Program-made: the position numbers and the translations under genes
Notes under the pieces: generated by a model
Told to the model about the DNA's origin: nothing
Database searches by the model: none
What the model saw: only the letters and a program-made list of their open reading frames with translations
Shown here: positions 14,356 through 42,742 of the stretch, in pieces
Layout of the letters: every line of letters starts with the position of its first letter
Numbering within the stretch: the stretch's first letter is position 1
Assembly (NCBI GenBank): GCA_027493885.1
Contig: JAOSJZ010000001.1
Location: 1,790,622-1,854,621 of the forward strand
Reading direction: 5' to 3'
Source of the DNA: Gaiella sp.
GTDB lineage: Bacteria; Actinomycetota; Thermoleophilia; Gaiellales; Gaiellaceae
Length of the DNA: 64,000 nucleotides

Positions 14356-17126
14356 CCCGTCCCGACACCTTCGGAGCCCGCTCCACCCTGGCGATCGGAG
14401 GCGCGAGCCACGAGATCTACCGGCTCGACGCCCTGCAGAGCCGCTTCGACGTCGCGCGTCTTCCCTACACGCTGCGGATCCTGCTCGAGAACCTCCTGCG
14501 ACGCGAGGACGGCGAGACCGTCACCGCCGGGGACGTGGAGGCGGTCGCCGCCTGGAACGCGAGCGCCGAGCCGTCGCGCGAGATCACGTTCGCGCCGGCG
14601 CGCGTCCTCCTGCAGGACTTCACGGGCGTCCCCGCGGTCGTCGACCTCGCGGCGATGCGCGATGCGATGAACGCCCTCGGCGGCGACCCGAGTCGAATCG
14701 ACCCCTTGATCCCCGCCGAGCTCGTGATCGACCACTCGGTCCAGGTCGACGACTTTGCGAGCAGGCTCGCGATCCGCCGCAACGCCGAGCTCGAGTTCGA
14801 GCGAAACCGCGAGCGCTACGCCTTCCTGCGCTGGGGTCAGAGCGCCTTCGACGCGCTCGAGGTCGTGCCGCCCAACACCGGCATCTGCCACCAGGTGAAC
14901 CTCGAGTTCCTCGCGCGCGTCGTCGAGGAGCGCGGCGGACAGGCCTTCCCCGACACGCTCGTCGGCACCGACTCCCACACGACCATGGTCAACGGCCTCG
15001 GCGTGCTCGGCTGGGGTGTCGGGGGGATCGAGGCCGAGGCGGCGATGCTGGGCGAATCGATCTCGATGCTCGTCCCGCAGGTTGTGGGGTTCCGGCTCCA
15101 CGGCCGGCTTCCGGACGGCGCGACCGCGACCGACCTCGTGCTGACGGTGACGGAGATCCTGCGAGCGACCGGCGTCGTCGGGAAGTTCGTCGAGTACTTC
15201 GGCGAGGGCCTCGCGAGCCTGCCGCTCGCCGACCGCGCGACGATCGGGAACATGTCGCCCGAGTACGGCGCCACGTGCGGCTTCTTCCCGGTCGACGACG
15301 AGACCCTGCGCTACCTGCGCCTGACGGGGCGCAGCGAGGAGCGGGTGGCGCTCGTCGAGGCGTACTGCAAGGAGAACATGCTCTGGCACGAGCCGTCGGA
15401 GCCCGCCACGTACTCCGAGGTCGTCGAGCTCGACCTCTCCACCGTCGAGCCGTCGCTCGCCGGCCCGCGACGCCCGCAGGACAGGATCCCGCTAAAGCAG
15501 GCGAAGGAGTCGTTCCTCGGAGCGCTGGCGACCTTCGGCGTCGCCTACGGCGACGGCGTGGACGAGGCCGTGGTGGAGTCGTTCCCCGCGAGCGACTCCC
15601 CCGCTCACGCCGATCCTGGCGCCGCCGAGCCGTCGACCGGTCAGGGGGTGTCGCCCGCTCCGGTCGCCCTCGCCCCGACGTGGACCGCGGGTGTCCCCTG
15701 CGAGCTCGACGGCGAGGTCGTCCACCTCTCGCACGGCGCCGTCGTGATCGCCGCGATCACGTCCTGCACGAACACCTCGAACCCCTCGGTGATGGTGGCG
15801 GCGGGGCTCCTCGCGAAGAAGGCGGTCGAGCGCGGCCTCGACCGGAAGCCGTGGGTGAAGTCGAGCCTCGCCCCCGGGTCGAAGGTCGTGACCGAGTACT
15901 TCGAGCGCGCCGGCCTGACGCCCTACCTCGAGGCGCTCGGCTTCCACACGGTCGGCTACGGCTGCACGACCTGCATCGGGAACTCGGGGCCGCTCCCCGA
16001 GCCCGTCTCGCAGGCGATCGCCGAGGGAGACCTCGTCGCCTGCGCCGTGCTCTCCGGCAACCGCAACTTCGAGGCGCGGATCCACCCGGAGGTGAAGGCG
16101 AACTACCTCGCGAGCCCCCCGCTCGTGGTCGCGTACGCCCTCGCGGGACGGATGGACGTCGACCTCGCGACCGAGCCGCTCGGTCACGACGCGAGCGGAG
16201 AGCCGGTCTACCTGGCCGACGTGTGGCCCTCCCCGGAGGAGGTCCGCGAGACGGTCGAGGGCGCGATCGGGCGCGAGATGTTCGAGCGCACCTACGCGGA
16301 CGTCTACACCGGTGACCCCGACTGGCGCGAGCTCGAGATCCCCTCCGGGGATCTCTACGCCTGGAGCGACGACTCCACCTACGTCCGGCGTCCTCCGTAC
16401 TTCGAGGGGATGTCGATCGAGGTGGGCTCCGTGGGCGACGTTCACGGAGCGCGCTGCCTCGTCTCGCTCGGCGACTCGGTCACGACCGACCACATCTCGC
16501 CCGCCGGGTCGGTCAAGCCGGATGCACCGGCGGGCCGCTACCTCGTCGAGCACGGTGTCGAGCGCAAGGCGTTCAACTCGTACGGCTCCCGGCGCGGCAA
16601 CCACGAGGTGATGGTGCGCGGCACCTTCGCCAACGTGCGGCTCCGCAACCTGCTCGTTCCGGGCTCGGAGGGCACCTGGACCGTGCATCTGCCCTCGGGC
16701 GAGGAGACGACGATCTTCGAGGCCGCGGAGCGCTACCTCGCCGAAGGCGTGCCGACGATCGTCCTTGCAGGGAAGGAGTACGGCTCGGGCTCGTCACGCG
16801 ACTGGGCGGCGAAGGGGCCGAACCTGCTCGGCGTGAAGGCCGTGATTGCCGAGAGCTACGAGCGGATCCACCGCTCGAACCTGCTGATGATGGGCGTTCT
16901 CCCGCTCCAGTACCTCCCCGGCGAGAGCCGCGAGTCGCTCGGCCTCACCGGGCGCGAGGAGTTCTCCGTCACCGGCGTCGAGAACGGCGAGGCGCGCGAG
17001 GTGACGGTGCACGCGGGCGGGAAGGAGTTCCGCACGATCCTGCGGCTCGACACGCCGCGCGAGCGCGAGTACGTGCGCCACGGCGGGATCCTCCCCTACG
17101 TGCTGCGGAAGCTGGCCGCGAGCTGA
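14352..17126 (+). CDS. acnA: Aconitate hydratase A
   Basis: [73 protein letters not shown]; GGAGG RBS. Confidence 0.97.
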
Positions 17127-17136
17127 GTCCCCCAAG

Positions 17137-17210
17137 GTGTCCGACTGAAGTCGGACACACACGGCCAGCGCCAACGCCACACGGGAGGTGTCCGACTTCA
17201 GTCGGACACC
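17137..17210. repeat. BIME-like pair of oppositely oriented REP-like hairpins
   Basis: GTGTCCGACT-GA-AGTCGGACAC (17137-17158) and GGTGTCCGACT-TC-AGTCGGACACC (17187-17210) between convergent acnA and sigma genes. Confidence 0.85.
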
Positions 17211-17246
17211 CACGTCGAACACCACGTCGGACAGCTGGCCCGTAGG

Positions 17247-18323
17247 CTACGCGGCGAGCGACGCGAGCTCGCGCAGCGCGGCGAGCCGGCTCAGGGCCTG
17301 GCCCTCGAGCTGGCGCACGCGCTCGCGCGTCAGGTCGAGCTCGTGGCCGATCGCCTCGAGCGTCCACGGCTCGCCCTCGAACCCGAAGCGCAGCTCGAGG
17401 ATCCGCCGCTCCCGCTCGGGGAGCGCGTCGAGCGCGCGCCGGACGCCCTGCCGGCGAAGCGACTCCTCCGCCTCGTCGAACGGGTCGACCGCCTCGCGGT
17501 CCGCGAACAGGTCGCCGAGCTCGCCCTCGTCGTCCGCACCGACCGACTGGTTGAGCGAGACCGACGCGTGGGCGGCGCTCATCGCCTCCTCGACGTGCTG
17601 GATCGGCAGGCCCGTGGCCTCCGCGAGCTCCTCCTTCGTCGCCTCTCGGCCGAGCTCGACCTCGAGCCGGCGGGCGGCGCGAGAGAGCTTCTGCTGCCGC
17701 TCGACGACGTGGACGGGCACGCGGATCGTGCGCGCGTGATTCGCGACGGCACGCTGCACCGACTGGCGGATCCACCACGTCGCGTACGTCGAGAACTTGA
17801 AGCCGCGGCGCCAGTCGAACTTCTCGACTGCCCGGTTGAGCCCGAGCGTGCCCTCCTGGATCAGGTCGAGGAACGGGACGCCGAGCCCGCGGTAGCCCTT
17901 CGCGATCGAGACGACGAGCCGCAGGTTCGACTCGATCATGTGGCGCTTCGCGACCGGGTCGCCGCGCTCGATCCGCTTCGCCAGCTGTACCTCCTGGGCG
18001 GCGTTCAACAGCTTGTGACGGCCGACGTCCGCGAGGAAGAGCTGCAGCGAGTCGGCGGCGCCGGAGAGGGACTCGCTCGCCCACACGGCCGCCTCGGCTG
18101 CCTCCTTCGCCTTCTCCTGCTCGGTGTCGATCGGCGCGCCGATCTCGAGGCCCATCGCCTCGAGCTCGCGCGTGACCTGCTCGACCTCCTCCGCGGCAAG
18201 CTCCTGCTCGGTGACGAATCCTTCGAGCTCGACCGGGTCCACCCAGCCGCGCTCCTCCGAGCGTTCCACGATCGACTTCAGCTGCTCGGTCTCGAACAGT
18301 TCGATGAGCTGGTTCTGCGTCAA
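17247..18323 (-). CDS. Sigma-70 factor, group 1/2 (RpoD/SigB-like)
   Basis: [63 protein letters not shown]. Confidence 0.93.
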
Positions 18324-18540
18324 GCCGGTGTGTCGTCCTTTCGACCTCGGCGGAGCACAATCTCCCTGACTCTATGCACCTGCTGCCGTTCTTTCCACGG
18401 GATCGGGACGGCAAACCGTGTCACAAACCGGCAACGCGTGCGTCAGCACTCGTATTCCGACCCGTGACGCCCTGCACCGCCCGGCCCGTCTGCGGCTCTA
18501 CCCGACTCTGACATGATAGGACGGTTGCGGGACGCGCGTG

Positions 18541-21095
18541 TTAGCGACGCGCTCCGCCGCGCCGACGCCGCTCCACGGGGCCCTTCGCTCGGCGCTCGGC
18601 AAGGAGCTCGAGCGCACGCTCCAGCGTCAGCCCGTCCACGTCGTCCCCCGGCGGAGGCTGGCGTTCGTCACGCCGTCGGTGACGTACGGCCCGAAGCGGC
18701 CGTCCTTGAGGACGAGCGGCTTGCCGCTTCCGGGATCGACGCCGAGCTCCCTGAGCGGAGGCTTCGGCGCTCCCCGGCCCCGGCGCTGCTTCGGCTGGGC
18801 GAGGATCGCCTCGGCGTCTTCCGGCGTAAGCTCGAGGAGCTGCTCCTCGGACTCCAGCGAGCGGGTCTCCGAGCCACGCTTCACGTAGGGGCCGTAGCGG
18901 CCGTTCGCGACGACGATCTCCTGGCCGTCCGAGCCCGCGAGCGTGCGCGGAAGCGTGAGCACGCGCTGCGCCTCGGCGAGCGTGACCGTCTCTGGGCTCA
19001 TCGAGGCGAACAGGGAGGCGGTGCGGGGCTTGCCCTCGGCGCCTTCGGGGAGCACCTCGGTCACGTAGGGGCCGTAGCGACCGACGCGGACGACGATCTC
19101 GCGGCCGGTCTCCGAATGCCGCCCGAGCGAGCGCTCGGCGCCGGCCGGCGTAGCGAGAAGCTCTTCGGCACGCTCGGCGGTGAGCTCGTCCGGCGCCAGG
19201 TCGTCGGGGATGCTCGCGCGTTCCTCGCCGCGCTCGAGATACGGGCCGTAGCGGCCGACGCGGGCGACGACGTCCGAACGGGGGATCGCGATCGAGTTCA
19301 CCTCGCGCGCGTCGATGCCCTCGAGGTGGTCGGTGACGAGCGCGTGGAGCCCCGGATCGCCGTCGCCGAAGTAGAACCGGCGGAGCCACGCGACCCGGTC
19401 CTCGTTCCCGCTCGCGATCCGGTCGAGGTCGTCCTCGAGCCGCGCCGTGAAGTCGTAGTCCACGAGCTGGTCGAAATGCCGCTCGAGGAGCTGCGTCACC
19501 GCAAAGGCCAGGAAGGTCGGCACGAGCGCCGTGCCCTTCTTGTAGACGTAGCCGCGATCGAGGATCGTCCCCATGATCGACGCGTAGGTCGACGGTCGCC
19601 CGATCCCGCGCTCCTCGAGCGCCTTCACGAGGCTCGCCTCGGTGTAGCGCGCCGGCGGGCTCGTCTCGTGGCCCTGCGGCTCGAGCGCGGAGGCCGTGAG
19701 CTCCTGGCCGGCCGCTACGGGCGGCAGCCGCCGCTCCTCGTCCTCGTCCGCCGGCTCGTCCCGGCCGGCCGAGTATGCGAGCATGAAGCCCGGGAAGGTG
19801 ATCACCGTTCCGCTCGCGCGGAAGGTCGCCTCGGTGCCGTCAGCCGTCGTCGCGCCGAGCTCGATCGAGACGGTCTGCCCGACCGCATCCTTCATCTGGG
19901 ACGCGATCGTGCGCTTGAAGATCAGGTCGTACAGCGCCAGCTCGTCGCGGCTGAGCTCCCGCGCCAGCTGCGCAGGCGTGCGGAAGACGTCGCCCGCCGG
20001 GCGGATCGCCTCGTGTGCTTCCTGCGCGTTCGCGACGGCGCGCTCGTAGCGCCGCGGCTCGGCCGGCACGGTCTCCGGGCCGTGCTCGCGGGCGGCATGG
20101 GCGCGCGCCGCCTGCGAGGCCGCGTCGGAGAGCGTCACCGAGTCCGTGCGCATGTACGTGATGTGCCCGTTCTCGTACAGCCGCTGCGCCAGGCTCATGG
20201 TCGTCTGCGACGAGAAGCGGAGCTTGCGGCTCGCCTCCTGCTGGAGCGTCGAGGTTCGGAAGGGCGCGGCCGGCCGCCGGGTGTAGGGCTTCTCGTCGAC
20301 CTTCGAGACGGTGAAGGTGCGATGCTCGAGGGCGGCCGCGACCTCGCGCGCCCGCTGCTCGTCGAGCACGAGGACCCCCGTGCCCGGGATGCCCGCCTCG
20401 CCGAAGTCGCGGCCCTGGGCGAGCCTCGTGCCTCCGAGCGCGACGAGGCGCGCCTCGAACGGGCCCGGCTCGAACGTCCCCAGCACGTCCCAGTAGCCGG
20501 CCGCGACGAACCGCATCCGCTCGCGCTCGCGCTCGACCACGAGACGGGTCGCGACCGACTGCACGCGCCCCGCGGAGAGGCGCGGCATCACCTTCTTCCA
20601 GAGCACGGGCGAGACCTCGAACCCGTAGAGCCGATCGAGGATGCGGCGCGTCTCTTGCGCGTCGACGAGCCGCTCGTCGATGTCACGCGTCTGGCCGAGC
20701 GCACGCTCGATCGCGTCCCGCGTGATCTCGTGGAAGACCATGCGCCGCACGGGGACCTTCGGCTTCAACACCTCGCGCAGGTGCCAGGCGATCGCCTCGC
20801 CCTCGCGGTCCTCGTCGGTGGCGAGCAGGAGCTCGTCGGCGTCGCGCAGCTTCTTCTTCAGGTCGGAGACGACGCGCTTCTTGTCGGCGTCGACGACGTA
20901 CATCGGCTCGAACTCGTCCTCGACGGCGACGCCGAGCTGGCCGAACCGCTCTCGCTGCTCCTTCGGGATCTCGGAGGCACGGTTGGGCAGGTCGCGGATG
21001 TGGCCGATGCTCGACTCCACGACGAAGTCCTTGCCGAGATAGCCGGCGATCGTCCGCGCCTTGGCGGGGGACTCGACGATTACGAGACTGGTCAT
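18541..21095 (-). CDS. topA: DNA topoisomerase I (type IA, actinobacterial C-terminal repeats), apparent -1 frameshift at C5 run 18645-18649
   Basis: LVIVESPAKA, ATDEDREGE, SAGRVQS, ITYMRTDS, QEAHEAIRP, GIGRPSTYA; repaired C-terminus SLRRGDDVDGLTLERALELLAERRAKG. Confidence 0.96.
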
Positions 21096-25278: not shown

Positions 25279-26775
25279 GTGCGTAGCGAGCCGGTTCACC
25301 GGGAGGTCGTCGACGACGACGCTCTCTCGCGGACCGTGGTGCGACTGCGCGAGGCCGGGATCGCGCTGCCGACGTTCGCCCAGCTCGCGAGCCCGTCGCT
25401 GATCCCCCCGCGTGTCCTAGCGGCTCTCGCGGACGTCGGCCTGGACGACCCGCATCCGCTCAACCTCTTCCGGGTGCACTGGTCGAACGGCTCCGACCGC
25501 ACCCGTCTCGTCGACGTCCCCGAGCACCTCGTCCTGCCGAGAGCGCTGACGGGAGTCGAGGCGAGGATCGTCGTCGCGCTCGGCGACCGCTTCCCGCTGA
25601 TCCGGGCCCACAAGGTGCTCGCCGCGTACGGGTGCCTCGCGCCGCGCCTCGCGAGCGGCACCTTCGATCCCACGCGCCACCGCGCCGTCTGGCCCTCGAC
25701 GGGAAACTACTGCCGCGGCGGCGTCGCCATCTCACGGCTGCTCGGCTGCCGCGGGGTCGCGGTCCTGCCCGAAGGTATGAGCCGCGAGCGCTTCGACTGG
25801 CTCGACCGCTGGGTCTCGGACCCGGCCGACGTCGTGACGACGCCGGGGACCGAGAGCAACGTCAAGGAGATCTACGACCGTTGCAGGGAGCTCGCCGCCG
25901 ACCCGGACAACGTGGTCCTCAACCAGTTCTCCGAGCTCGGGAACTACCTCGTCCACTACCTGGCGACCGGGACCGCCCTCGAGCGCGTGTTCGAGTCGCT
26001 GCGCGAGCGCGAGCCGAAGCTCCGGCTGCGGGCGTTCGTGTCGGCCACGGGCTCGGCGGGGACGATCGCCGCAGGCGACCGCCTGAAGGAGCGCTACGGC
26101 TCGCTGACCGTCGCCTGCGAGGCGCTCGAGTGCCCGACGCTCCTCTACAACGGCTTCGGCGAGCACAACATCCAGGGGATCGGCGACAAGCACGTTCCCC
26201 TGATCCACAACGTGCTCGCGACGGACGTCGTCCTCGCCGTCTCCGACCGGGCGACCGACCGGCTCGGCGTCCTCTTCGGCACCGAGGCCGGCCGGCGCCA
26301 TCTCGCGCGGCGCGGCGTGTCCGACGGGGCGCTCGCCGGCCTTCCGTCGCTCGGTCTCTCGAGCATCTGCAACGTGCTCGGCGCGATCAAGGTCGCGAAG
26401 CACTTCGGGCTCGGCTCCGACGACGTCCTGGTCACCGTCGCGACCGACGGTGCGCCGATGTACGACAGCGAGCGCGAGACGGCGCGCGCCCGGTACTTCC
26501 CGGACGGCTTCGACCGCGTCGCGGCGGCCGAGACGTACGGCGAGCACCTGCTCGGCGCCGCGACCGACCACCTTCGCGAGCTCGACTCGAATGAGCGCCG
26601 GCGGATCTTCAACCTCGGCTACTACACCTGGGTCGAGCAGCAGGACGTCTCGCTCGCGGATTTCGAGGCGCGCCGCGACCCGGCGTTCTGGAAGGCGCTC
26701 CCCGACCGCGTGGCGGCGTGGGACGACCTCATCGACGACCTCAACGCCCGGACCGGCGTCCTGGAGGCCCTATGA
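25279..26775 (+). CDS. Fold-type II PLP-dependent enzyme (cysteine synthase/Trp synthase beta superfamily)
   Basis: AHKVLAAY Schiff-base Lys, WPSTGNY, ATGSAGT phosphate loop, [12 protein letters not shown]. Confidence 0.8.
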
Positions 26776-28166
26776 GCACGATCGGAAGCCGCCTCGTCTG
26801 TTCGGGCTGCGGCGCCTCGCCCGGGCCGTGGGAGCCGTACCCCTTCCGCTGCCCCGAGGCGCGCCCCGGCGACGACGTCGACCACGTCCTGCGCCGCAGG
26901 CTCGACCTCGCGCGCGTCTCCTTCCCCCTCGACGACCCCGAGCCGAACCCGTTCCTCCGCTACCGCGGGCTGCTCCACGCCGCGCGACTCGCACTCGCGG
27001 GGGGTATCGCCGACGACCGGCTCCGCGCGCTCGTGCGCCGCCTCGACGACGCGGTGGCGGCGGTCGACGGGCACGGCTTCCGCACGACGCCGTTCCGGCG
27101 CAGCGAGGAGCTCGGCCGTGCTTGCGGCTTTTCCGGGGCGGGCGGGGTCTGGGTGAAGGACGAGACGGGCAACGTCTCCGGCTCGCACAAGGCGCGGCAC
27201 CTGTTCGGTGTCCTGCTCCAGCTCGCGGTGGCAGAGGAGCTCGGCCTCGTAGAACGCGCGCCGAGGCCCGAGCTCGCGATCGCGAGCTGCGGCAACGCGG
27301 CGCTCGCAGCGGCCATCCTCGCCGCGGCGAGCGGGCGCACGCTGCGCGTCTTCGTCCCGCCCCACGCCGAGCCGGCCGTGCTCGCGCGGCTGCGTGAGCT
27401 CGGCGCCCTGGTGGAGGAGTGCCCGCGCGACGGCCGTCCCGGCGATCCGGCCTACCACCGCCTGCTCGAGGCGCTCGCCGCCGGCGCGCTTCCGTTCACC
27501 TGCCAGGGGAACCTCAACGGCCTCGCCGTCGAAGGAGGCCAGACGCTCGGGTGGGAGCTCGCCGCCGCCGGTGTCCCACTCGACCGGCTCGTCGTCCAGG
27601 TCGGAGGCGGCGCGCTCGCGAGCGCGTGCGCCCACGCCTTCGACGAGGCGGTCGCCCTCGGCGCGCTCGCGAGCGCGCCGCGGCTGGACACGGTGCAGAC
27701 GGAGGGGGCCCGGCCGCTCCGGCGCGCGTTCGAGGCGCTCGAGCGGGTCGACGCCGACGACCCCGTCGCGTTCGCGGCGCGGCACCGCTCCCGCTTCATG
27801 TGGCCGTGGGAGACGGAGCCGCGAGGCGTCGCGCACGGGATCCTCGACGACGAGACGTACGACTGGCTCGCGGTGGTCGAGGCGATGCGCGCGACGGGCG
27901 GGCGGCCGCTCGTGGTGGACGACGAGTCGCTCATGGCGGCGAACGCGCTCGCGCGGGAGGCGACCGGGATCGACGTCGACCCCACGGGCTCCGCGGGGCT
28001 CGCCGGCCTGCTCGCGCTCCGCGCGGCCGGGGACCTCGACCCGGAAGAGCGGGTCGCGGTGTTGTTCACGGGAGTCGTGCGAACGGCTCCGACCGAGAGG
28101 AGGAGACACGATGAGGAGCTTCCTCGGACGAGACATCCTGTCGCTTCGGGACTTCGAGCGCGCTGA
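26772..28166 (+). CDS. Threonine-synthase-like fold-type II PLP enzyme with N-terminal Cys motif
   Basis: [51 protein letters not shown]; 3' end overlaps next gene. Confidence 0.8.
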
Positions 28167-29067
28167 CTTCCAGCGCATCTTCGAGGTCTGCGACGAGCTC
28201 GCGCCGATCGCGAAGACCCGCCGGAACGCAGATCTCCTGTCCGGCAAGACGCTCCTGACGGCGTTCTACCAGCCGAGCACGCGGACGCGTCTCGCGACGG
28301 AGGCAGCCATGCACCGCCTGGGCGGGCACGTGCTCGGCTTCTCCGACGCGAAGATGACCCGGGCGGGCGACTTCTACCAGGAGTCGATCAAGGACACGGT
28401 CCACATGCTCGAGTACTACGGCGACGTCATCGCCATGCGCCACTTCGAGCAGGGCGCGCCCGCGGAGGCCGCGAGGTGGGCGTCGATCCCGGTGATCAAC
28501 TGCGGCGACGGCTGGGGCGAGCACCCGACCCAGGTGCTGACCGACCTCTACACGACGCAGAAGGAGCTCGGGCGCCTCGACGGCCTCACCTATCTCCTCG
28601 TCGGCGACATGCGCATGCGGACGATGCACTCGATCCTCTACGCGCTCTCGCAGTTCGACGCGAAGGCGTACGTCGTCGGGCCGCCGGAGATGTCCCTCAC
28701 GCCCGAGTTCACGCGCGAGCTGGAGGAGCGGAACGTCCGCTACGAGGAGGCGTTCTCGGTCGAGGACGTGATCGAGGCGTGCGACGTCATCTACATGGAG
28801 CCGGTCGTGCAGGCCGACTACACGGCCTCGCGCGAGGAGCGCGGGGGCGGCGGCGTCGCGACGACCCCGGCCACGTACCGCGTCACCCGCCAGCTCTTGC
28901 GGGAGAAGGCGAAGCCGGGCGCGATCATCCTGCACAGCCTGCCGCGCATGGACGAGCTGCCCGCGGACGTCGACCAGACGCGCCACGCGCGCTACTGGCA
29001 GGAGGCGTTCAACGGCGTCGTCATGCGGATGGCGCTGCTCGCGCTCGTGCTCGGGGCCGTCGAGTAG
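28111..29067 (+). CDS. ATCase/OTCase-superfamily carbamoyltransferase of unknown specificity
   Basis: FYQPSTRTRL, INCGDGWGEHPTQ, ILHSLPR; AGGAG RBS. Confidence 0.85.
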   Translation: MRSFLGRDILSLRDFERADFQRIFEVCDELAPIAKTRRNADLLSGKTLLTAFYQPSTRTRLATEAAMHRLGGHVLGFSDAKMTRAGDFYQESIKDTVHMLEYYGDVIAMRHFEQGAPAEAARWASIPVINCGDGWGEHPTQVLTDLYTTQKELGRLDGLTYLLVGDMRMRTMHSILYALSQFDAKAYVVGPPEMSLTPEFTRELEERNVRYEEAFSVEDVIEACDVIYMEPVVQADYTASREERGGGGVATTPATYRVTRQLLREKAKPGAIILHSLPRMDELPADVDQTRHARYWQEAFNGVVMRMALLALVLGAVE

Positions 29068-29081
29068 GGGGTGAAGCCGAG

Positions 29082-29564
29082 GTGGAGCTCACGCTCAACG
29101 GCCTGACCGTCGTCGCGGAGCCCTGCGACGGGCAGAGCCTGCTCGAGCTGCTCCGCGACGACTTCGGCCTGCGCTCGCCGAAGGACGGGTGCGCCCCGGA
29201 GGGCTCGTGCGGGGCGTGCACCGTCCTCGTCGACGGTCACGCGGTCGTCTCGTGCGCCCAGAAGGCGACCCGGGTGGAGGGCAAGAGCGTCGTCACGCAG
29301 GAGGGGCTCGACGAGGAGTCGCGGCGGCTCTGGGCGGAGAGCTTCGTCGCCGCAGGCGCTTCGCAGTGCGGGTTCTGCTCGCCCGGCGTCGTGATGAAGG
29401 CCGAGGCGCTGCTCCGCAAGAACGCGGCGCCGACGCGCGCCGAGATCGCGCACGCGCTCCTCGGCAACCTCTGCCGCTGCACGGGCTACGCGAAGATCGT
29501 CGACGCGGTCGAGCGGGCGGCAGCGGCCAGGCGGGGGAAGCGCGCGCGGGCGCCGAGCCGGTGA
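29082..29564 (+). CDS. 2x[2Fe-2S] domain of a xanthine-dehydrogenase-family enzyme (possibly fused to the next ORF)
   Basis: KDGCAPEGSCGACTVL..SC, SQCGFCSPG, GNLCRCTGY. Confidence 0.9.
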   Translation: MELTLNGLTVVAEPCDGQSLLELLRDDFGLRSPKDGCAPEGSCGACTVLVDGHAVVSCAQKATRVEGKSVVTQEGLDEESRRLWAESFVAAGASQCGFCSPGVVMKAEALLRKNAAPTRAEIAHALLGNLCRCTGYAKIVDAVERAAAARRGKRARAPSR

Positions 29565-31672
29565 CCGGCATCGGCGCCCGCGCCCCGCGCTACGAGGGCG
29601 CAGAGCTCGCGCTCGGCGACCGGCCCTTCGTCGCGGACCTCGTCGAGCCGGGCATGCTCCAGGGAGCCCTCCGCTTCTCCGACCACCCGCGGGCGCGGGT
29701 CCTCGCGATCGACACGGCCGCCGCCGGGGCGTGCCCTGGCGTGGTCGCGGTCGTGACCGCGGCGGACGTCCCCGGCGAGCGGCTGCAGGGGCCGTTGACG
29801 CGCGACCGGCCGCAGCTCGTCGCGGTCGGCGAGACCACGGCGTACGTGGGCGACGTGCTGGCCGCGGTCGCCGCCGAGAGCCGGGCCGCGGCGCGTGAGG
29901 CGGCCGCGCTCGTCCGAGTGGAGTACGAGGTGCTCGAGCCCGTCGCCGACCCCTTCGAGGCGACGGCCGCCGGCGCGCCCGAGCTCCACCCCGGCGGCAA
30001 CGTCCTCTCGGTCTCGCGCGTGCACCGCGGCGACGCCGACCGCGCGCTCGCCGGCGCGGCGCACCTGGTGCACGAGCGGTTCCGGACGCAGACGATCGAG
30101 CACGCCTTCCTCGAGCCCGAGGCCGCGCTCGCGGTGCCCGTCGACGACGGCTTCCGGGTCTTCTCGCAGGGCCAGGGCGCCTGGGAGGACCGGCGGCAGC
30201 TCGCCTCGTTCCTCGGTCTCCCGGCGGGGCGCGTCCGGGTGACGCAGGTCGCGACCGGCGGCGCCTTCGGCGGCAAGGAGGACCTGAGCGTCCAGCCCCA
30301 TGCCGCCCTGCTCGCCCTGGTCACCGGGCGTCCTGTCCTCGTCGTGCTCGGCCGGCGCGAGAGCATCCGCTTCCACCCCAAGCGCCACCCGCTGTGGCTC
30401 GACTACACGGCGGGCTGCGACGAGGAGGGGAGGCTCGTCGCCGTGCGGGCGCGGATCGTCGGCGACACCGGCGCCTACGCGAGCGTCGGCGACAAGGTGC
30501 TCGAGCGCGCCGCGGGCCACGCCTGCGGCGCCTACCGCGTGCCGAACGTCGACGTCGAGGCCCGGGCCGTCTACACGAACAATCCGCCGTGCGGCGCGAT
30601 GCGCGGCTTCGGCGTCAGCCAGGCCAACTTTGCCGTCGAGGGCGTCCTCGACCGGCTCGCCGAGAAAGCCGGCATCGACGGCTGGGAGATCCGCTGGCGC
30701 AACGCCCTGCGCGTCGGCGACCGCACGGGCACGGGACAGAAGCTCGGTCAGGGAGTCGGCCTCGAGGAGACGCTGCTCGCGGTGCGGGACGCCTACCGCG
30801 AGGCGCGCCACGCGGGCATCGCCTGCGGGATCAAGAACACGGGCATCGGCAACGGCGTCGTCGAGGAGGGGCATGCCGTCCTCCGGCCCGAGGCCGACGG
30901 CACGGTCACGCTGCTCCACTCCTGGACGGAGATGGGCCAGGGCGTGCACACCGTCCTGCGCCAGATCGCCTGCGAGGAGCTCGGCGTCGCGCCCGACCGG
31001 ATCCGCGTCGCCGTCGACACGGAGCGCGAGCTCGACACGGGCATCACGACCGCGTCGCGCGCGACCGTGCTGGGCGGCAACGCCGTGCTCGACGCCGCCC
31101 GCCGGTTGCGTGAAGCCCTCGGCGTGGCCCCGCTCGAGTCGCTTGCCGGACAGGAGTTCCGCGGCGACGTCGTCGTCGACTGGACGACCGCGAACGACGC
31201 CGACGAGCCCGTTACGCACCTCGCGTACGCCTGGGCGACGCAGGTCGTCGTGCTCGACGGCGAGGGCCGGCTCGAGAAGGTGATCGCCGCGCACGATGTC
31301 GGCCGCGCGCTCAACCCGACCCTCGTCGAGGGCCAGATCGAGGGCGGCATCCACATGGGTCTCGGCCAGGCGCTCTCCGAGGAGCTCGTGCTCGAGCGCT
31401 GCGTGCCCGTGACCGAGACCCTCAAGTCCCTGCACCTGATCCCGCCGACCGGCATGCCGGAGGTGGAGTGCATCCTCGTGGAGGTGCCGCAGCCCGAGGG
31501 CCCGTACGGGGCGAAGGGCGTCGGCGAGGCGTCGCTGGTGCCCACCGCGGCGGCGGCGGCGGCCGCGCTCCACGCGTTCGACGGCGTTCGCCGGACGGAG
31601 CTTCCGATGAAGGACGCGCCCGCCGCGCTCGCCGCGGTCCCGCATCTCCGACGCGCAAAGGAGCGGACATGA
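29561..31672 (+). CDS. Molybdopterin-binding subunit, xanthine dehydrogenase family
   Basis: [48 protein letters not shown]. Confidence 0.92.
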
Positions 31673-41381: not shown

Positions 41382-42742
41382 CGACGGCGCTCGCGCACGG
41401 CCTCGTCCTCACCCTCGACCCCGAGCGCACCATCCTCCGTGACGGCACCGTCGCGTTCGACGAGGACGGGACGATCGTCGCGGTGGGGCCGTCCCGGGAG
41501 ACGCTCGCGTCGCTGCGGCCGGGCACCGAGGTCGTCGACTGCTCGCGGTGCGTGCTGACGCCCGGCTTCGTCGACGCACACGCGCACCTCGGCGAGGAGG
41601 TGATGCGCGGCCTCGTCCCCGATGCTGCCCCGCCCGACGAGTGGCTTCCCCGCTGGCTCCTGCCCGCGTATGCAGCGCTGACGCCCGAGGACGAGCGGCT
41701 CTCCGCCGAGCTCGGGATCGCGCAGATGCTGCTCACCGGGACGACGACCTTCTGCGAGGCGGGAACGCTGCTCGACTGGCGCTCGGCGGCCGACGTCGTC
41801 GTCGAGACAGGGATCCGCGGCCAGCTCGGCCGCTGGGCGTGGGACCTGCCGCCGGAGCCCGCAGCGATGCGCCGGACGACCGACGAGGTGCTCGCGGCCT
41901 GCGAGGACCTCGTCACCGGCGTGCGGGCGACGGGCTCTGCCCGCCTCACCGGCGCGGTGATCCTGCTCGGGATCGGGACGGCCTCGCCGGCGCTCCTCAC
42001 CGGCGCGGCCGCGCTCGCCGGGCGGCTCGACGCGCCGCTCGCGACGATGTACGCGAGCGTCGCGCCCGAGCACGGCGGCACGTCTCTGCCGCTCGCCGCT
42101 CTCGGCGAGGCCGGCTGGCTGGCACCCCGCACGAAGCTGACCCACGCCGTCTACGTCTCCGAGGCGGATGTCGCGGAGCTCGCCCGGGCCGGCGTCTCGG
42201 TCGCGCACTGCCCCACGGCGGCCCTCCGGCACGTCAAGGGCATCCACCGCCACGGCCTCGTGCCGGAGATGCTCGCGCAGGGGATCCCCGTGGCACTCGG
42301 AGGCGACTCCGCGAACGGCTCGAACCACCTCGACGTGCTGCGGCTGATGTACCTCGCGGCGACGCTCTACAAGGACTTCCGCATGGACCCGACGATGGTG
42401 CCGCCCGAGACGGCGCTCGAGATGGCGACCCTCCACGGCGCCCGCGCGCTCGGGCTCGCGGACGAGATCGGCTCGCTCGAGCCCGGCAAGCGCGCGGACG
42501 TCGTCGTCTTCTCCACCGACCACCCCGAGTGGCGCCCGCTCCTGCATCCCGTGCAGAACCTCGTGCTCACCGCGACCGACCGCAGCATCGAGTCGGTCTG
42601 GGTCGACGGACGGAAGGTCGTCGACCGCGGGACGCTCCTCACGATCGACCTCCCACGCCTGCTCGAGCGCGTGGACTCGGCCGCGGCCGCGCTTCTCGAC
42701 CGCATCGGCCTCCAAGCACCCTGGACGTGGCCCGCGCGATGA
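41378..42742 (+). CDS. Amidohydrolase (MTA/SAH-deaminase/AtzA-like) with atypical metal site
   Basis: PGFVDAHAH, GTTTFCE, AHCP, LGGDS, GSLEPGKRADVV; usual HxHxxE replaced by ATMYAS. Confidence 0.85.
   Translation: MTTALAHGLVLTLDPERTILRDGTVAFDEDGTIVAVGPSRETLASLRPGTEVVDCSRCVLTPGFVDAHAHLGEEVMRGLVPDAAPPDEWLPRWLLPAYAALTPEDERLSAELGIAQMLLTGTTTFCEAGTLLDWRSAADVVVETGIRGQLGRWAWDLPPEPAAMRRTTDEVLAACEDLVTGVRATGSARLTGAVILLGIGTASPALLTGAAALAGRLDAPLATMYASVAPEHGGTSLPLAALGEAGWLAPRTKLTHAVYVSEADVAELARAGVSVAHCPTAALRHVKGIHRHGLVPEMLAQGIPVALGGDSANGSNHLDVLRLMYLAATLYKDFRMDPTMVPPETALEMATLHGARALGLADEIGSLEPGKRADVVVFSTDHPEWRPLLHPVQNLVLTATDRSIESVWVDGRKVVDRGTLLTIDLPRLLERVDSAAAALLDRIGLQAPWTWPAR

Follow-up and report, generated by a model that had tools for sequence, protein, structure and literature searches.

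Why should a gene that databases label pyrB lie among genes for the reductive breakdown of urate, and what would its product be doing there? The question is raised by an open frame at 28111-29067 (plus strand) of the window, by which is meant the whole 64,000-nucleotide stretch of Gaiella sp. DNA that was analysed. The frame is single, encodes 318 amino acids and its ATG is preceded by a ribosome site, GAGGAGGAG. The product is a pseudo-ATCase (a look-alike of aspartate carbamoyltransferase, ATCase) of the Nocardioides A1SH59 type. The answer to which we lean, at slightly better than even chances, is that it is a catabolic alpha-ureido carbamoyltransferase that would attack the 2-(alpha)-ureido group by phosphorolysis, with 3-amino-2-ureidopropanoate or diureidopropanoate as its substrate and not albizziin, and so provide another carbamoyl phosphate and another ATP; substrate, direction, regiochemistry and ATP yield are what we infer here.

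The gene belongs to a run of nine tightly packed genes (25279-36018). Upstream on the plus strand, where all the operon genes named here lie, are two PLP enzymes, the first (25279-26775) with a PALP fold, distant from cysteine synthases and a candidate for the YgeX step, the second (26772-28166) threonine-synthase-like and a candidate for the same step or for a racemase/lyase partner. Downstream are an XdhAC-type 2Fe-2S and molybdopterin oxidoreductase (29082-31672; TIGR03311 matches best, below cut-off as pieces), an SsnA-like amidohydrolase (31669-33015; 41% to E. coli SsnA and just below the family cut-off), an F420-type luciferase-like reductase (32988-34007; cofD is in the genome) of the sort suggested as a stand-in for YgfK (PMC12507026), a shorter YgeW-like carbamoyltransferase (34034-35065; 38% to E. 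coli YgeW, whose specific motifs it has, though below the YgeW cut-off) and carbamate kinase (35062-36018; NF009007, above cut-off). The earlier note on this DNA, which placed a YgeW-like enzyme and a carbamate kinase alongside, was right in this. Across 80 related loci, many of them partial and with the query's own loci removed, neighbours at 40% identity or more recur as follows: the first PLP enzyme in 67, the second in 57, Xdh in 54-60, SsnA in 51, the reductase in 39, the YgeW-like enzyme in 57 and the kinase in 54. Homologues of the core of the reductive urate cluster (Xdh, ring reductase, SsnA, YgeW and carbamate kinase) are then co-located, several of them below cut-offs, with an F420-type reductase replacing YgfK; such an F420 variant of the pathway had been predicted (PMC12507026). 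In a genome-wide search of this 92%-complete genome neither YgeY nor YgeX was found. There is no HyuA in the operon, and the best hydantoinase of the genome, about 40% identical to cluster-linked HyuA, is encoded elsewhere.

Several features of the surroundings deserve record. The Xdh pieces are split into different frames by a one-base deletion in a G run near 29535 (29530-29564), and are fused in 42 of 44 relatives; the split is probably an assembly error, and selD of the same genome is likewise frameshifted. In many close relatives (among them L001, L002 and L007, at about 15900-19300) the YgeW-like gene is separated from the F420 reductase gene by an extra Xdh set, comprising an FAD subunit and an Fe-S/Mo component; the window has no such set at the corresponding place, 34007-34034. 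The best candidate for the HyuA step is a dihydropyrimidinase/hydantoinase-like gene (C1:1592855-1594306) beside an ABC-type permease-like ORF, far from the operon. Beyond a dinB-like gene on the minus strand (36091-37293) lies a set (37414-42742) consisting of an ABC transporter (a binding protein whose C-terminus has a Gly-rich calcium-binding-like repeat, an ATPase and two permeases) and a TRZ/ATZ-family amidohydrolase, which may supply heterocyclic substrates.

What sort of active site does the pseudo-ATCase have? Its carbamoyl-phosphate half is that of the superfamily, with STRT, R105, HPxQ and HxLP on a two-domain fold. STRT (S56-T59, 28276-28287; kept in 80 of 80 orthologues), HPTQ (H138-Q141, 28522-28533) and HSLPR (residues 275-279, 28933-28947, of the pseudo-ATCase H[ST]LP type) are intact, as had been claimed, and by alignment S52, T53, R54, T55, R105, H134 and Q137 of E. 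coli PyrB are conserved. The amino-acid half is remodelled. R229 and Q231, the clamp on the aspartate beta-carboxylate within an RxQxER that every known ATCase has (PMC4581275), have become Pro and Val in a 240s loop that reads YMEPVVQADY (residues 228-237, 28792-28821); relative to E. coli PyrB there are also T228 to Glu and P266 to Ser, and a new invariant glutamate, E230, adjoins the position of the lost arginine. The 80s loop has become KMTRAGDFYQES (residues 81-92, 28351-28386), with an invariant R84 and without KGE, so that the S80/K84 loop of E. coli PyrB is replaced, its register being uncertain at a short insertion. The initial description of both loops was accurate. Where it spoke of aspartate-specificity motifs as lost, however, that holds for R229, Q231 and KGE only: R170 (28618-28620), the counterpart of the E. 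coli R167 that positions the alpha-carboxylate (PMC4581275), and D162 of the aspartate site were overlooked, and both are kept in all 80 orthologues.

Those 80 orthologues, 74-92% identical and drawn from Actinomycetota, Chloroflexota, Phycisphaerae, Spirochaetota and others, share identical losses of R229/Q231 and KGE. R229 is present in 69 of 69 canonical ATCases and Pro occupies that site in all 80 pseudo-ATCases, which rules out drift or sequencing error. A degenerate enzyme or pseudogene is likewise rejected, given the fixed substitutions and an AlphaFold model with pLDDT 93. Because the residue states are fixed in every orthologue, what is seen is a conserved new pocket and not decay.

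Might it nevertheless be a divergent but genuine ATCase, or an anabolic transferase of another kind that draws on carbamoyl phosphate from the operon? The sequence narrowly passes the TIGR00670 ATCase HMM (251 bits, cut-off 237), though it falls below NF002032 (218 bits, cut-off 263), and it is because it just clears the one but not the other that databases carry the pyrB label. P. abyssi ATCase is its closest relative of solved structure and also the best structure match of the model (TM 0.88), and in 12 of 50 carrier assemblies no other PyrB scores above cut-off. Those 12 assemblies are incomplete, however, and in the other 38 a separate PyrB is found. This genome has four transcarbamylases (ArgF, a canonical PyrB, the pseudo-ATCase and the YgeW-like enzyme), and the canonical PyrB, with KGE, RMQ and HPGP, is encoded elsewhere, flanked by pyrR- and pyrC-like genes; with that gene located, the pseudo-ATCase is not the housekeeping ATCase, in agreement with the view that it is no ordinary PyrB. 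There are no pyr genes nearby, and distribution is patchy, the gene being accessory (in 4 of 24 congeners). Together with the missing RxQxER this makes an anabolic role highly improbable.

Nor do other named families accommodate it. The OTCase/PTCase features sought (a DxxxSMG loop, HCLP and the HMM cut-off) were not found, in keeping with the reported absence of SMG; as a YgeW it scores 22-24 bits where the cut-offs are 453-500, and it is not placed with YgeW in the tree; and it shows neither the GX[SC] of UGTCases at R229-Q231 nor their allantoinase/uricase context. In trees it forms its own clade (support 99-100) on the ATCase branch, apart from OTCase and YgeW, and clusters with further non-canonical ATCase-like proteins from metagenomes. 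A large quick tree puts the clade outside the canonical ATCases (89), though a careful tree has a weak backbone and does not reject canonical monophyly (p-AU 0.46). Phylogeny supports a distinct clade; placement inside the PyrB clade, which had been offered as grounds for refutation, proved not to discriminate. The other non-canonical ATCase-like proteins (P0133-P0265) commonly have a TRAG-type 80s loop, retain R167 in 41 of 42 and have very different 240s loops. Five of their contexts were examined (L157-L159 included) and all differ: creatininase/SHMT, aminotransferase, racemase-like/DHO dehydrogenase, alcohol dehydrogenase and phosphate acyltransferase. The wide set possibly comprises many N-carbamoyl amino acid transferases.

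How would alpha-ureido phosphorolysis fit in? The setting would be an environmental form of reductive urate (2,8-dioxopurine) breakdown, its flow as drawn here being taken throughout from homology and the 2025 papers. Urate would be reduced by Xdh and the purine ring by the F420 enzyme, SsnA and a hydantoinase would open the ring to 2,3-diureidopropanoate, and the YgeW-like enzyme would phosphorolyse the 3-ureido group. The pseudo-ATCase could then phosphorolyse the remaining 2-(alpha)-ureido group, at the position where ATCase acts on carbamoyl-aspartate, to yield 2,3-diaminopropanoate and carbamoyl phosphate. The ligand of the carboxylate would be R170; at the position of the ATCase beta-carboxylate clamp, E230 could bind the 3-amino group. 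The unfavourable equilibrium would be drawn forward by carbamate kinase, which would yield a second ATP (two kinase ATP per urate), and the PLP pair may carry the product on to pyruvate. YgeY would be made dispensable without always being displaced. 3-Amino-2-ureidopropanoate is favoured as substrate since the scaffold keeps R167 but has an acidic residue where the clamp for the beta-carboxylate has been lost, and since it is the alpha-amino group that ATCase carbamoylates. The fuller proposition, that this is an N2-carbamoyl-diaminopropanoate phosphorylase mislabelled pyrB in many phyla which, with its YgeW-like partner, converts both urate ureido groups to carbamoyl phosphate, doubling the kinase ATP relative to the gut pathway and rendering YgeY dispensable, we would put at even chances.

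Which ureido group goes first is itself contested, and that the two 2025 papers disagree on which one YgeW removes counts against an alpha-ureido reading. Liu et al. have YgeW remove the 3-ureido group, leaving 3-amino-2-ureidopropanoate for YgeY (bioRxiv 2025.04.24.650524); Li et al. make the opposite assignment, having detected albizziin as the YgeW product (PMC12507026). Were the latter to hold here, the pseudo-ATCase might, as the earlier note had it, take the albizziin released by the YgeW-like enzyme and phosphorolyse its 3-(beta)-ureido group, with the same net two carbamoyl phosphates and the opposite regiochemistry. The co-occurrence data would fit equally well. But the isomer assigned by Liu et al. 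is the other one, the ATCase-type alpha-carboxylate site is kept, and the retained R167 indicates an alpha-ureido acid, which makes a beta-ureido substrate less likely. Further, DPTCase, which interconverts diaminopropanoate and beta-ureidoalanine, carries HDLP (PMC4581275), for which there is no match in the pseudo-ATCase orthologues, HSLP being present in all 80. We consider the albizziin-consuming version quite unlikely.

Alternatively the pseudo-ATCase could act first, on the 2-ureido group of 2,3-diureidopropanoate, so that albizziin is its product, to be finished by YgeY where there is one, by the YgeW-like enzyme or by direct PLP-dependent elimination of urea; this would be a parallel entry and no stand-in for YgeY, and its yield need not be two ATP. 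YgeY and YgeX do turn albizziin into pyruvate (PMC12507026), two PLP enzymes are encoded here where E. coli needs one, and the scheme would account for the retention of ygeY in 14 of 40 loci. Moreover the H[ST]LP hydroxyl has been modelled as binding the ureido nitrogen in UGTCase (PMC4581275), and diureidopropanoate is allantoate plus one CH2. Set against this, the pseudo-ATCase nearly always accompanies a YgeW-like enzyme (53 of 54 Anaerolineae carriers), YgeY loss occurs mainly where the pseudo-ATCase is present, and the invariant E230 would match an ammonium more readily than an uncharged ureido group. Overall such a parallel entry seems unlikely.

Can gene content tell whether the alpha-ureido phosphorolysis favoured here could take over from YgeY? 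Just 5 of 50 carrier genomes have a YgeY that scores above cut-off, and 251 Anaerolineae genomes provided a controlled sample. Since TIGR03316 detected no knotted YgeW in any of the 251, the local YgeW-like protein served as query. The pseudo-ATCase gene is present in 54 of the genomes, of which 53 have the YgeW-like enzyme, versus 78 of the 197 others. Among those with the YgeW-like enzyme, some YgeY match is found in 39 of 53 carriers against 76 of 78 non-carriers (Fisher p 6e-5, inflated as kin are not independent), and 14 of the 16 genomes that have the YgeW-like enzyme without YgeY are carriers. The figure of 39 overstates retention, because in the 10 carriers examined the distant matches fall outside the E. 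coli YgeY clade, 9 of them in one paralogous clade. Genome-level TIGR03526 counts were rejected as a clean marker on finding that a paralogous M20 clade in Anaerolineae clears the cut-off. This M20 paralogue (L137-L150, L156) is often downstream of a sugar-transferase-like gene and unlinked to purine genes. SsnA is present in 200 of the 251 and the shorter YgeW-like transferase in 131, often right behind ygeY, and reductive purine breakdown seems very common in the class.

Gene order is instructive. By hand count, 59 of the 78 non-carriers have ygeY no more than about 5 kb from the YgeW-like gene; in most carrier loci the pseudo-ATCase gene is directly upstream of the YgeW-like gene, the usual ygeY slot. 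True ygeY is nevertheless kept in 14 of 40 Anaerolineae carrier loci, mostly directly upstream (some loci reach contig ends), and adjoins the pseudo-ATCase gene in three further loci, which is odd if both enzymes perform the same reaction; strict mutual exclusion is rejected. The resulting series, from ygeY then YgeW-like gene, through ygeY, pseudo-ATCase and YgeW-like gene, to pseudo-ATCase then YgeW-like gene, suggests a functional overlap permitting loss of ygeY, though a third of carriers keep both. Three Phycisphaerae genomes combine a true knotted YgeW with the pseudo-ATCase and are without YgeY. In a separate search for the YgeW-like enzyme a threshold of E 1e-55 proved too strict for some of its subgroups, and the 23 genomes so affected have the gene at 47-54% identity beside that of the pseudo-ATCase. 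The proposal that phosphorolysis stands in for hydrolysis by YgeY therefore survives in part: YgeY is absent here and its loss is concentrated in the Anaerolineae carriers, but the pseudo-ATCase is no clean substitute.

That coexistence with YgeY invites thought of a side branch, in which the pseudo-ATCase would handle the opposite enantiomer, or another N-carbamoyl amino acid derived from a different purine, pyrimidine or hydantoin, and pass carbamoyl phosphate to the shared kinase. The pairing of two transferases with two PLP enzymes is suggestive, and many loci are flanked by guanine-deaminase-like hydrolases, extra Xdh trios and ABC transporters. There is also a mismatch of hand that favours a side branch and counts against the alpha-ureido reading: the 2025 work assigned the intermediates as (R), i.e. 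D-configured (bioRxiv 2025.04.24.650524), while the ATCase scaffold binds L-aspartate. (The stereochemistry is itself disputed; PMC12990295.) Counting against the alpha-ureido reading too are the lack of HyuA in the operon and the sub-cut-off scores of the YgeW-like, SsnA and Xdh proteins. A side branch, however, leaves unexplained both the near-confinement of YgeY loss to carriers and how the final ureido group is removed where YgeY is missing, as in the present genome, and is to our minds improbable.

Should alpha-ureido phosphorolysis prove correct, a carbamoyltransferase subfamily named in 2013 would acquire a reaction, a widespread pyrB misannotation would be corrected, and the urate pathway solved in 2025 would have a more energy-conserving form by which soil and sediment bacteria gain a second ATP per uric acid degraded. 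The chemistry, phosphorolysis with carbamate kinase, is familiar. An alpha-ureido-selective enzyme would also be a reagent for the disputes over whether YgeW yields albizziin or 3-amino-2-ureidopropanoate and over stereochemistry (PMC12990295).

Of known systems, the ATC II PyrB of P. abyssi (1ml4) shares the fold at 42% identity, the full carbamoyl-phosphate site and R167; the pseudo-ATCase differs in lacking RxQxER and KGE/K84, in having HSLP for HPLP, in being a paralogue of a canonical PyrB and in its catabolic context. The reaction of DPTCase also involves diaminopropanoate, carbamoyl phosphate and a ureido product (PMC4581275), but the enzyme is anabolic and acts on the beta-amino group. 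The YgeW, YqeA and YgeY pathway has the same kind of operon and couples ureido phosphorolysis to ATP (bioRxiv 2025.04.24.650524; PMC12507026), yet there the M20 enzyme YgeY hydrolyses one ureido group, and YgeW is on the YgeW/OTCase branch where the pseudo-ATCase is on that of ATCase. Rxyl_2847, the Rubrobacter UGTCase, phosphorolyses allantoate to ureidoglycine and carbamoyl phosphate (PMC4016543) and provides a working model, being ATCase-derived, of H[ST]LP type and beside carbamate kinase in purine breakdown; it belongs, however, to another subgroup, the only one that Barba et al. assayed, on a separate branch of their tree, with GX[SC] at the R229 position and an oxidative allantoin context with uricase.

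Closest is the A1SH59 of Nocardioides sp. JS614, which by sequence is of the same family and already in print. Barba et al. defined pseudo-ATCases in 2013 and noted that the JS614 one adjoins ygeW, xdh and hyuA; they call it 'Subgroup 2' in their text and ATC_III_HSLP in their tree, and the HSLP row of Table 1 has 'VXP' where their alignment reads YMEPVV, table and text subgroup numbers differing (PMC4016543). The two proteins have in common KMTRAG.FYQES, DGWGEHPTQ, GDMRMRTMHS, YMEPVVQADY and HSLPRMDEL, with about 75% identity over some 296 columns counted by eye, as well as STRT, HPTQ, HSLP, the RxQ loss, a separate genuine PyrB and the ygeW/xdh context. In 2013, with the pathway then unsolved, this was one organism and no substrate was proposed; our literature search, beyond whose reach were many subscription journals, found no assay or pathway assignment of a Nocardioides-type pseudo-ATCase. 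The family is now seen to be widespread (at least 587 relatives, and 54 of the 251 Anaerolineae), and its gene neighbours include the two PLP enzymes, the F420 reductase and carbamate kinase. It is a conserved family, named before, and probably a catabolic transcarbamylase with a new substrate.
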